Below, piece by piece: positions 4,402-6,149 of a stretch of DNA of 36,277 nucleotides. The stretch's first letter is position 1, and the number at the start of each line of letters is the position of its first letter. The notes below the pieces were generated by a model. It saw only the letters and a list, made by a program, of their open reading frames with translations. It was not told where the DNA came from and did no database searches. Position numbers and translations under genes: made by a program. Source of the DNA: Desulfurococcales archaeon (GTDB lineage Archaea > Thermoproteota > Thermoprotei_A > Sulfolobales > Desulfurococcaceae); the NCBI GenBank assembly GCA_015522345.1, contig WAML01000119.1, positions 1-36,277 on the forward strand, given 5' to 3'.

Positions 4402-5769
4402 TTATTGTTGAACAGAGAATTCTTTCTTAATACACTTATCCTCTAGATTACTCGATAGAGTCAGTAAGTTATTGAATGCTTCATCAATTGTATCTCTGGA
4501 AACTAGTGCCAGGAGTTTCCTTAATAGTCTTTCAATATTCTTTGTTCTCCTAGCTTTCTCTATTTCTCCCCTCAATTGCTTGTATAAACCTATTTTATCT
4601 ATTACTTCATTGAACTCAGGTTTATCAATACATTCTTTAATGTATTCTGAAATCTTTTTGTATAGCAAGATAATTTGTTGTCCTTTATTCCTTATCCCAT
4701 GGTATTCTGTAAGCATATTAACTGCTTCTTCACTATATCCATAGGATGCTAGTATAAGTAGTGATTTAGGGCTTGACTGATATTTTACAGCCATTGCTTC
4801 TGGATATAGTTTTGACTTTACTTCAATAGTGTATGGTCTATAGTTATCCCTTGAATCATACCTTATGAAGACGCTTCTACTATAGAGTATTTTCTTAGCT
4901 TTTTCAATGAATTCACTTAATTCACTATAGGACTTCAACTCTATTAATTCAATAGGTACTGTCTCCCACTCAAGTATCTTCTTTGACTCAGATACTGTAA
5001 GTAGTGTACCATCGGGTTTACGTATTGTTAGCAAGTATAGTTTGAACGAACTAATATCATACAACTCTACATTCGGCTTAAGTATTGCTGGCTCTGGAGG
5101 CTCTAGAATAAAAGTTATTGTCCATTTAGGGCTGAACTTAACTATTTTATCGTATAAGCCTATTTGTTTAGCGAGTTCATAGGCTATGTATGCTCTAGGA
5201 TTTATTACTTCATTGATATCTTCTACTATAAGTTGTCTACCCAAGAACTGCATGTTATGCATTAGATACTTTGTTGCTGGAACCCACTTCTTTATAAATG
5301 GGTTATAGTAGAATGTTATCTGGTATCCATCTACTCTATGCGTTACTTCGGTAACCCTATATTCTCTTGGATCAAGTATTTTTACTCTCCTACCCTCTAT
5401 ATCGTGGCTCCTATGTATTGGATAAGCTATTGTTTCTACACTACCATCTCTCCCTATATACAGTATAGTTCCAGTAGCATCTATGCTTACGGGGAAGTAT
5501 CTTATATACATACGTGGGTTCCACGAATAAATACAGAGTTCTCCATTAGATACTTCTATACAGTTCTTTTGTATAAGTCGAGTAAACACGTCTATGTACC
5601 TTCCTTTAACAACACTAATTTTCTTAGAAGGTTCTCCCAAGAGACTGCCTATATACTTTATTTCATCTGGTGATGGTTCGTAGCCTTTTTCTACAGCATT
5701 GATAAATTCTTCAACAATACATATACTATTGCCCATGCATTTCTCAAACAATTTCTCTCCACCCAGCAT
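4402..5769 (-). CDS. Uncharacterised 455-aa protein with an Rnl3/Pab1020-type RNA-ligase-like motif pattern; motif-I lysine position is arginine
   Basis: The long ORF is clearly real. VTHRVDGYQITF (aa 142-153) fits nucleotidyltransferase motif I KxDGxN except for R145 (codon 5335-5337). FILEPPEP (motif III-like), FKLYLLTIRKPDG (IIIa-like) and IEVKSK (motif V-like KxK) follow in the right order. Only the functional call is low confidence. Confidence 0.45.
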   Translation of the reverse strand: MLGGEKLFEKCMGNSICIVEEFINAVEKGYEPSPDEIKYIGSLLGEPSKKISVVKGRYIDVFTRLIQKNCIEVSNGELCIYSWNPRMYIRYFPVSIDATGTILYIGRDGSVETIAYPIHRSHDIEGRRVKILDPREYRVTEVTHRVDGYQITFYYNPFIKKWVPATKYLMHNMQFLGRQLIVEDINEVINPRAYIAYELAKQIGLYDKIVKFSPKWTITFILEPPEPAILKPNVELYDISSFKLYLLTIRKPDGTLLTVSESKKILEWETVPIELIELKSYSELSEFIEKAKKILYSRSVFIRYDSRDNYRPYTIEVKSKLYPEAMAVKYQSSPKSLLILASYGYSEEAVNMLTEYHGIRNKGQQIILLYKKISEYIKECIDKPEFNEVIDKIGLYKQLRGEIEKARRTKNIERLLRKLLALVSRDTIDEAFNNLLTLSSNLEDKCIKKEFSVQQ

Positions 5770-5893
5770 CTTTATCTAAACACTATCTATGTTAGCTAGA
5801 TTGATAAGTAAATCTATAGAGTGTTAAATAGAGACTTGTTCTTATAGTGCTAGAGTATATTAGGCATAGTATAATATTATGTAATTATGGAGT

Positions 5894-5945
5894 GTGCTGA
5901 AAACGGCCGATGCTGAAGCATGGTGATGACCAACACCTAGGCTTA
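5894..5945 (+). ncRNA. Candidate box C/D sRNA-like module A
   Basis: GUGCUGA(5894-5900)-12 nt-CUGA(5913-5916)-6 nt-GUGAUGA(5923-5929)-12 nt-CUUA(5942-5945). Spacing is exactly that of an archaeal C/D sRNA. The outer boxes are imperfect and the inner boxes perfect. Lies in a GC-enriched island. Confidence 0.3.
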
Positions 5946-6079
5946 GATGGGATGAAGAAGCTGGCCTGTACAGATACTGTGGAAACTACTGGCTTGATGA
6001 AGAACCTTCGCTTTCCAGACCGATGGTTATTAGTAAATTTTACTGTTTCTCTAGTATACTAGGCGATTTCATCCAAAAT

Positions 6080-6129
6080 GTGAAGAAACCAACGTGGACT
6101 GAATATGTGATGAAATCGGCCTCTGCAGA
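6080..6129 (+). ncRNA. Candidate box C/D sRNA-like module B
   Basis: GUGAAGA(6080-6086)-12 nt-CUGA(6099-6102)-4 nt-GUGAUGA(6107-6113)-12 nt-CAGA(6126-6129). Same architecture as module A, again with degenerate terminal C and D boxes. Confidence 0.3.
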
Positions 6130-6149
6130 TCATGTTTAATGGTGGTTTT

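Follow-up and report, generated by a model that had tools for sequence, protein, structure and literature searches.

A putative Rnl1-derived pseudo-ligase family with arginine at the motif I nucleophile position in Desulfurococcales-like archaea

In the covalent nucleotidyltransferase superfamily, lysyl-AMP chemistry is what defines an RNA ligase, and in older mutational work on DNA ligases and capping enzymes, even the conservative change of the motif I lysine to arginine is reported to abolish nucleotidylation. In the window analyzed here (the whole stretch of DNA, 36,277 nucleotides of contig WAML01000119.1 from a Desulfurococcales archaeon), the open reading frame (ORF) at 4402..5769 on the minus strand encodes a protein with a predicted RNA ligase fold in which this lysine is an arginine, R145. 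We propose, with moderate confidence, that the protein is an Rnl1-derived, non-adenylylating pseudo-ligase that probably binds either RNA ends or tRNA-like stem-loops. Its nearest described relatives are T4 Rnl1 and the ligase domain of fungal Trl1 (Trl1-LIG), for which Michaelis complexes have defined the roles of the active-site residues (PMC6379707). In T4 Rnl1, Arg54 and Lys75 bind the γ-phosphate of ATP and Phe76 contacts the adenine; the glutamates of motifs III and IV hold the catalytic metal via waters, both motif V lysines touch the α-phosphate, and the basic residue of motif Ia is the proposed ligand of the RNA 5′-phosphate (PMC6379707). The C-terminal domain confers tRNA specificity in T4 Rnl1, while that of Trl1-LIG is stated to be unique (PMC6379707).

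The AlphaFold2 (AF2) model of the protein, built from an alignment of 31 homologues, has a mean predicted local distance difference test (pLDDT) value of 93.5 and a predicted template modeling (pTM) score of 0.88. A Foldseek search of the PDB with this model returned 25 matches at E ≤ 1e-3, every one of them an RNA ligase. T4 Rnl1 was the best match (E, 1e-12 to 2e-11), and Trl1-LIG (1e-10 to 8e-10), the Rnl3 enzymes MthRnl, Pab1020, and Palaeococcus Rnl (∼5e-7), and Naegleria Rnl5 (∼1e-6) were also found. The Rnl3 chains appeared at rank 11 and below (4.6e-7 or weaker), after ten Rnl1/Trl1 entries, and in the viral library BFVD, the top matches were RnlA-type ligases, with the ligase of Rhodothermus phage RM378 at 2e-14. 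The alignments to T4 Rnl1 span 404 to 431 columns on a 375-residue chain and therefore include the helical C-domain. The TM-scores are modest (0.4 to 0.5) and the root mean square deviations large, which we attribute to inter-domain orientation in the model. As modeled, then, the protein has the nucleotidyltransferase (adenylyltransferase, RNA ligase) fold, as the original prediction had it from the sequence. That prediction had also labeled the protein as Rnl3/Pab1020-type, and this label did not hold: T4 Rnl1 and Trl1-LIG match 5 to 6 orders of magnitude better, the sequence relatives belong to PF09511 and phrog_562, and the protein is closer in kind to Rnl1/Trl1 than to Rnl3/Pab1020.

Sequence comparison leads to the same relatives through a set of intermediates. 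We refer to homologues with arginine at motif I as the R-type family and to archaeal proteins with the motif I lysine as K-type relatives. The window protein by itself gave nothing significant in Pfam, NCBIfam, PDB sequences, PADLOC, or PHROGs; its sole Pfam signal was a sub-threshold match to RNA_lig_T4_1 (PF09511), at 12.5 bits versus a cutoff of 28.3, and such a sub-threshold match was seen in 1 of 31 family members. Searched against PDB sequences, the family profile yielded only coiled-coil noise from the C-domain, and neither the window protein nor the family profile matched an Rnl3 sequence there. A profile search over 1.84 billion representative proteins retrieved a small family (15 clusters at E < 1e-30) and, at E values of 1e-8 to 1e-4, a few remote relatives. 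Each of the six full-length proteins among the latter has canonical KxDG, EG, and VKVKS motifs, and five of these six K-type proteins match PF09511 at the Pfam cutoff. A K-type profile found T4 Rnl1 in the PDB at ∼1e-16, with R54, K75, K99, E159, E227-G228, and K240/K242 all aligned and the alignment reaching into the T4 C-domain, to residue ∼282 of T4 Rnl1 (2c5u chain position 283). Both P0073 and P0093, which are K-type, hit phrog_562 (“RNA ligase and tail fiber protein attachment catalyst”). Comparison of the R-type family with six archaeal K-type proteins by hhalign gave a probability of 99.6% and an E value of 2e-23 over 373 columns, extending to residue 447 and setting R145 directly opposite the K-type lysine. 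The K-type hidden Markov model (HMM) matches the window ORF at 1.7e-20 and detected no second ligase gene in the window. By these profile comparisons, the 4402..5769 protein is demonstrably homologous to bona fide members of the PF09511 (Rnl1) family.

Direct translation gives an intact ORF of 455 amino acids plus a stop codon, starting at ATG, whose codon 145 reads AGA (TCT on the plus strand, 5335-5337). The motif I region including R145 reads VTHRVDGYQITF at amino acids 142 to 153; FILEPPEP lies at amino acid 220, FKLYLLTIRKPDGTLL at 242, SRSVFIRY at 297, and IEVKSK at 315. To relate these segments to T4 Rnl1, we used a MAFFT master alignment of 52 full-length R-type proteins, 8 archaeal K-type proteins, and T4 Rnl1, from which the following positions were read.

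5473..5475, minus strand: T99, at the position of T4 R54 (T in 42 of 52 R-type proteins and never R; R in 8 of 8 K-type proteins).
Within 5404..5412, minus strand: R120, at T4 K75 (R-type, R in 48 and K in 4; K-type, K in 8 of 8).
Within 5404..5412, minus strand: S121, at T4 F76 (R-type, A, T, or S; K-type, F in 8 of 8).
Within 5404..5412, minus strand: H122, at T4 F77 (R-type, H, Y, L, and others; K-type, F in 7 and P in 1).
5335-5337, minus strand: R145, at T4 K99, the motif I nucleophile (R-type, R in 52 of 52; K-type, K in 8 of 8).
5326..5337, minus strand: the motif I equivalent R145-V-D147-G148, with D147 at T4 D101 (R-type, D in 51 and E in 1; K-type, D in 8 of 8).
Within 5326..5337, minus strand: G148, at T4 G102 (G in 52 of 52 R-type and 8 of 8 K-type proteins).
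5269..5274, minus strand: T166-K167, at T4 S118-K119 of motif Ia (T166 invariant; position 167 at least 90% K/R and always basic).
5107..5109, minus strand: I221, at T4 E159 of motif III (R-type, I in 24 and V in 21, never E; K-type, E in 8 of 8).
5020..5022, minus strand: R250, at T4 R182 of the motif IIIa strand (R in 52 of 52 R-type and 8 of 8 K-type proteins).
Within 4873..4878, minus strand: R298, at T4 E227 of motif IV (R-type, R in 49 of 52; K-type, E in 8 of 8).
Within 4873..4878, minus strand: S299, at T4 G228 of motif IV (R-type, S in 52 of 52; K-type, G in 8 of 8).
Within 4816..4824, minus strand: E316, at T4 K240 of motif V (R-type, E in 52 of 52; K-type, K in 8 of 8).
Within 4816..4824, minus strand: K318, at T4 K242 of motif V (R-type, K in 28 of 52, otherwise R, S, P, G, or E; K-type, K in 8 of 8).
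Position of T4 S243: S319 (R-type, S in 52 of 52; K-type, S in 5 and D, N, or T in 3).

The motif Ia column is unresolved for T4 in the MAFFT alignment, and its equivalence (“aaTr” to “KSK”) was taken from the K-type/T4 alignment together with hhalign. The Rnl1-like sub-module can be aligned in the R-type proteins, where its signature residues read T99, R120, and S121. At motif III, hhalign places “TFiL” opposite “mfEl,” and at motif IV, “RS~f~R” opposite “EGvVv,” a charge reversal. The family has thus lost two of the three acidic residues by which Rnl1/Trl1 hold the catalytic metal, and its only invariant lysine is K335, which sits in the C-domain. With the equivalents of Arg54, Phe76, Lys99, E159, E227, and K240 replaced, the R-type family no longer has, as read from these alignments, most of the residues on which step 1 (lysine adenylylation) depends, and several RNA-handling elements are kept. 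The protein should be unable to form lysyl-AMP, and without this intermediate, it would not be a classical ligase.

Several readings of the original prediction can be judged at these positions. It had placed arginine at the nucleophile position of an ORF at 4402-5769 and had read motif IV as RS in place of EG; both are borne out, the former by the AGA codon and by hhalign and MAFFT alike, the latter by R in 49 and S in 52 of the 52 proteins. Its proposed check for arginine or lysine among orthologues gives arginine in all 52 proteins and in 38 of 39 loci, and hhalign sets R145 itself at the nucleophile position. Two other assignments have to be corrected. The acidic motif III residue it saw in FILEPPEP does not occupy the catalytic position, which is I221: E223 of LEPPEP is variable, and the invariant E226 lies 5 residues downstream of I221. 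The motif V KxK, taken as K318-S-K320, aligns instead as E316-V-K318, with an invariant glutamate at the first lysine.

The rewritten gene is under strong constraint. Versus an orthologue that is 92% identical (L048), the dN/dS ratio is 0.11 over 442 codons; the reading frame is full-length and unbroken in ∼40 species-level genomes; and the 31-sequence alignment has 44 invariant columns, 37 of them within the nucleotidyltransferase core. In the 52-member alignment, the replacement residues of the pocket are themselves invariant, and a neighbor-joining tree places the R-type family as one clade beside the archaeal K-type group. With each GTDB species represented by one genome, 42 loci were identified, in metagenome-assembled genomes (MAGs) labeled Desulfurococcaceae, Desulfurococcales, Ignisphaera, Thermosphaera, “Sulfolobales,” Thermoprotei, or Thermoproteota, and in one case Thermoproteaceae; the family is restricted to Desulfurococcales-like Thermoprotei. 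All 44 homologues are named “hypothetical” and have no Pfam domain, the family has no model in Pfam, NCBIfam, PHROG, or PADLOC, and no description of it or of such a pseudo-ligase was found in the literature searched. A viral origin of the R-type gene was considered and dropped, the IMG/VR viral contigs containing no relative of it.

Motif I arginine is found in 38 of 39 full-length genes from the GTDB loci; the remaining gene, L024 (6001-7296 in the Ignisphaera sp. MAG JAWASI010000005.1), reads “VTKKVDGW,” with the lysine codon AAG, and its nearest relative carries arginine. All the other rewritten active-site positions of L024 remain R-type; the protein is without the motif III and IV glutamates and without both motif V lysines, and its lysine therefore cannot restore a classical site. 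The interchange suggests that the position needs a positive charge rather than a nucleophile, although the lysine could also be an assembly variant. Lysine (in “P-K-A/I-L”) is kept at the T4 K75 position in L024 and in the deep-branching P0047, P0048, P0050, and P0051. In the Ignisphaera/Thermosphaera-like sub-clade (L023 to L037), motif V reads “ELES[DE],” with both lysines lost, and the sub-clade to which the window protein belongs has “E[VI]KSK” at motif V and “HR” at the T4 K75 position. These differences suggest that the pocket may have diverged stepwise.

Around the pocket, the protein is laid out in three parts.

5575..5769, minus strand: N-terminal helical extension, amino acids 1 to 65 (helices 15-27, 34-43, and 51-65 by DSSP on the AF2 model).
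4810..5574, minus strand: nucleotidyltransferase core (Foldseek matches to T4 Rnl1, Trl1-LIG, Rnl3, and Rnl5; hhalign to the PF09511 archaeal ligases).
4405..4809, minus strand: all-helical C-terminal domain, amino acids 321 to 455 (helices 322-454 by DSSP).

Conserved parts of the N-terminal extension are the segments C-x-G-N-S-I-C-x-V-E and LLGEPTKK, and N14, E20, and G45 are invariant in the 31-sequence alignment. The C-domain has conserved basic residues at K329, K335, R360, K405, R414, R417, and K418. The start of the core also contains an invariant cysteine pair, C70 (5560-5562, minus strand) and C79 (5533-5535, minus strand), in “KNC...LCIYSW”; the pair is common to most K-type archaeal relatives (“RC...LCIY”) and could form a disulfide or a metal site, as is typical of hyperthermophile proteins.

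In the reading we favor, the R-type family would have arisen by duplication of an archaeal ATP-dependent RNA ligase of the T4-Rnl1 type (PF09511); the three-part Rnl1 architecture has been kept, and the adenylylation site has been systematically rewritten and then frozen. RNA might be bound through the retained motif I Asp-Gly, the motif Ia Thr-Arg/Lys, Arg250, and the basic helical C-domain, and the rebuilt, conserved polar pocket (R120, R145, R298, S299, R303, E316, and S319) could hold a terminal phosphate or nucleotide without metal-dependent catalysis. Such a protein would act alongside the canonical K-type paralogue and not instead of it. The phrog_562 annotation, which couples RNA ligation with tail fiber attachment, may be seen as a precedent for a non-catalytic role. 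A number of points weigh against this proposal. A rebuilt pocket so strictly invariant agrees with new catalysis at least as well as with passive binding, no conserved gene neighborhood points to a pathway, and co-occurrence with a K-type gene is documented in one MAG only. The residue equivalences, moreover, rest on profile and multiple alignments, and the loss of nucleotidylation upon a motif I Lys-to-Arg change enters the argument as general background.

The first of these points leads to the strongest rival, that the protein is an enzyme using the ligase fold for an altered, non-covalent chemistry, its arginine-rich pocket acting on RNA ends or nucleotides without lysyl-AMP. We regard this as a tentative possibility. 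Candidate activities would be step-3-only sealing of 5′-adenylylated RNA (AppRNA), de-adenylylation of abortive AppRNA, or a metal-independent phosphoryl or nucleotidyl transfer with R298 standing in for the catalytic metal. The pocket residues have been exchanged for invariant polar ones (R145, S299, and E316 in 52 of 52 proteins and R298 in 49 of 52), conservation is highest in the core, selection is strongly purifying, and the protein keeps the motif I Asp-Gly and the motif Ia basic residue, which real ligases use in steps 2 and 3 (PMC6379707). An enzyme of this kind would have to manage with two of the three metal-holding acidic residues gone and with a second motif V lysine that is present in just 28 of 52 proteins and is glutamate throughout one sub-clade. 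The loss of the adenine contact F76, and of F77, makes recognition of AMP or AppRNA doubtful, and no neighboring genes for end healing (kinase or phosphoesterase) accompany the gene. A more specific version, which we consider rather doubtful, is a new ligase-fold enzyme with an arginine-based, largely metal-independent site (R145, R298, R120, R303, E316, and S319) that in hyperthermophilic Crenarchaea acts on the termini of RNA; it might process or seal pre-activated RNA ends (App- or cyclic-phosphate) or remove abortive adenylates. If true, it would constitute a seventh, mechanistically distinct branch of the RNA ligase superfamily. The alternatives set by the original prediction, a dead RNA-binding paralogue or a ligase-fold enzyme with altered chemistry, were the right ones to pose.

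An unlikely explanation is that the R-type protein is a non-catalytic partner of the K-type ligase, a regulator or scaffold that tunes substrate choice or high-temperature stability in a heteromer. What brings this explanation up is the MAG CAYZRH01, in which K-type P0073 (456 amino acids, with KYDG, EG, and VKVKN) lies on CAYZRH010000066 and R-type L001, at 58% identity the closest relative of the window gene among the GTDB genomes, on CAYZRH010000015. On this one MAG, the R-type protein appears to coexist with a canonical K-type ligase and not to replace it. The two types are alike in length and domain order (the P0073 model, of lower confidence, has N-terminal helices, core, and C-terminal helices in the same sequence), and both have the conserved cysteine pair at the start of the core. 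Against a partnership, the co-occurrence comes from a single MAG, and R- and K-type genes are never adjacent: searching L001 to L042 (±6 kb) with the K-type HMM found only the R-type gene itself in these 42 loci. K-type relatives are also rare and very divergent, at least one of them occurring in a virus-like context. This is P0093, a canonical K-type Rnl1-like protein (PF09511/phrog_562) encoded at 6018-7235 of L053, an 87-kb ENA metagenome scaffold, where it is surrounded by many small unknown genes, a STIV_B116-like protein, and an ERCC4 nuclease; L053 looks like an archaeal virus or provirus encoding a T4-Rnl1-type ligase.

Much less probable is a classical ATP-dependent, circularizing ligase of the Rnl3/Pab1020 type that serves the adjacent C/D-box small RNAs (sRNAs) and uses R145 or another lysine as the nucleophile. 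The fold is that of an RNA ligase, one family member (L024) has the motif I lysine, and C/D-box-like RNAs do lie upstream of the gene; in Thermococcus, moreover, an Rnl3 knockout is reported to repress the circularization of C/D box sRNAs (PMC9014305). That background, given with the original prediction, stands for Thermococcus but does not transfer to the 4402..5769 protein. Besides the nucleophile, six catalytic positions are replaced; the only invariant lysine is in the C-domain; the Rnl3 structures score far below Rnl1/Trl1; and, as set out below, the sRNA is linked to DUF72 rather than to the ligase-like gene, and the neighborhood is not conserved across the family.

In the window, 4402..5769 alone is on the minus strand among the ORFs of at least 100 amino acids in the first 17 kb. 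It is flanked on one side by genes for Mrp-type antiporter subunits and on the other by DUF72, ribosomal proteins S13/S4/S11, RpoD, and L18e. This order (Mrp, gene, sRNA, DUF72, S13-S4-S11-RpoD) is shared only by the closest relatives, and the majority of the 42 related loci have a wholly different neighborhood. Across the 42 loci, no conserved neighbor and no functional link emerged: the sole recurrent neighbors are promiscuous ABC ATPases (11 loci, with varying strand and distance) and GlmS (7 loci, one sub-clade), and no kinase or phosphoesterase gene for end healing lies near the R-type genes in the neighborhoods of the related loci.

The intergenic region 5770-6131 contains C/D-box-like RNAs on the plus strand with weak Rfam matches to Sulfolobus sR families; at the gathering thresholds, Rfam gives nothing in the window. 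A candidate C/D-box sRNA at ∼6079-6131 (plus strand), directly upstream of the DUF72 start codon, has a box C-like GTGAAGA, the invariant guide-like segment CCAACGTGG, a D′ box CTGA, a C′ box GTGATGA, the invariant guide-like segment ATCGGCCTCT, and a D-like CAGA/CGGA. The guide-like segments are invariant in five aligned genomes, and the Rfam matches (Sulfolobus sR14/sR17) are sub-threshold. Its signature GATGARATCGGCCTCT was found in 8 related loci, beside DUF72 in 8 of 8, and in L001, the sRNA is ∼4 kb away from the ligase-like gene. Since the sRNA is tied to DUF72 in all eight, its adjacency to the gene in the window is local synteny, and we rejected a functional link between the two. The original prediction was right about the position of the gene (its strand, its Mrp and housekeeping flanks, and the C/D-box-like RNAs that it faces), and a link to the neighboring k-turn or C/D-box RNA was not supported. 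One or two more C/D-box-like elements are seen at 5890-6030 (plus strand), GGTGATGA...GGGATGAAGA...CAGA and TTGATGAAGA...CAGA; they match sR18/sR9 weakly in Rfam, are kept only in the 92%-identical relative L048, and end in CAGA, not in the usual CUGA.

The start of the gene is ambiguous at 5749-5769 (minus strand): the window has an ATG (M1), and the 92%-identical orthologue, which has no upstream ATG, is called from a TTG matching L7 of the window protein. A conserved TATA-like element, TTTAGATA(A/G)AG, is present just upstream of the start region (to ∼5782), and its position would fit a leaderless transcript beginning near L7. A scan for bacterial promoters and terminators was uninformative on this archaeal DNA.

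The last rival, a decaying, functionless relic of a ligase gene, would account for the loss of most catalytic residues, as in a dying enzyme gene, but is refuted by the full-length frame in ∼40 species-level genomes, the dN/dS of 0.11, the 44 invariant columns, the invariant replacements, and the very confident AF2 model.

The R-type family is a lineage derived from Rnl1 in which a non-canonical pocket has become fixed, previously without description in the literature searched. Depending on what the pocket does, the family would offer either a natural pseudo-ligase for separating RNA recognition from catalysis or new chemistry on an old scaffold, and its clean charge swaps and invariant new pocket recommend it for experiments. 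The analysis also brings to light barely known canonical Rnl1-type ligases in Crenarchaea and their viruses; to our knowledge, 5′-P/3′-OH RNA repair has not been studied in Crenarchaea. Defining the family would improve the annotation of Desulfurococcales genomes, in which its members are now “hypothetical” wherever they are named.

Among known systems, T4 Rnl1 (RnlA; PF09511, phrog_562) is the closest: it heads the structural matches (1e-12 in the PDB, with RnlA-type ligases at 2e-14 in BFVD), aligning over nearly all of its 375 residues. The window protein keeps the T4 residues D101, G102, the motif Ia basic residue, R182, and S243, whereas it has other residues at seven signature positions of the active site (R54, F76, K99, E159, E227, G228, and K240), and both it and the K-type relatives carry an extra N-terminal helical extension of ∼65 residues that T4 Rnl1 does not have. 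With the fungal Trl1 ligase domain (Rnl6 clade), the window protein shares an Rnl1-like adenylyltransferase followed by a helical C-domain (PMC6379707). Trl1-LIG, however, is catalytically complete and fused to a kinase and a cyclic phosphodiesterase, whereas the window protein has neither healing domains nor nearby healing genes. The Rnl3 enzymes (Pyrococcus abyssi Pab1020, Methanothermobacter thermautotrophicus MthRnl, and Palaeococcus pacificus Rnl) have the core, the origin in thermophilic archaea, and a similar size in common with it, but they keep KxDG, EG, and KxK and circularize RNA (PMC4797309, PMC2577357, PMC9014305), and the R-type family is without those residues. Like pseudoenzymes in general, the R-type proteins combine a kept fold with lost catalytic residues, purifying selection, and an active paralogue. 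Pseudoenzymes are common, and the existence of an R-type one is therefore only moderately surprising. Unlike in the typical structural pseudoenzyme, however, the former active site of the R-type proteins has not been relaxed but re-set with invariant residues.

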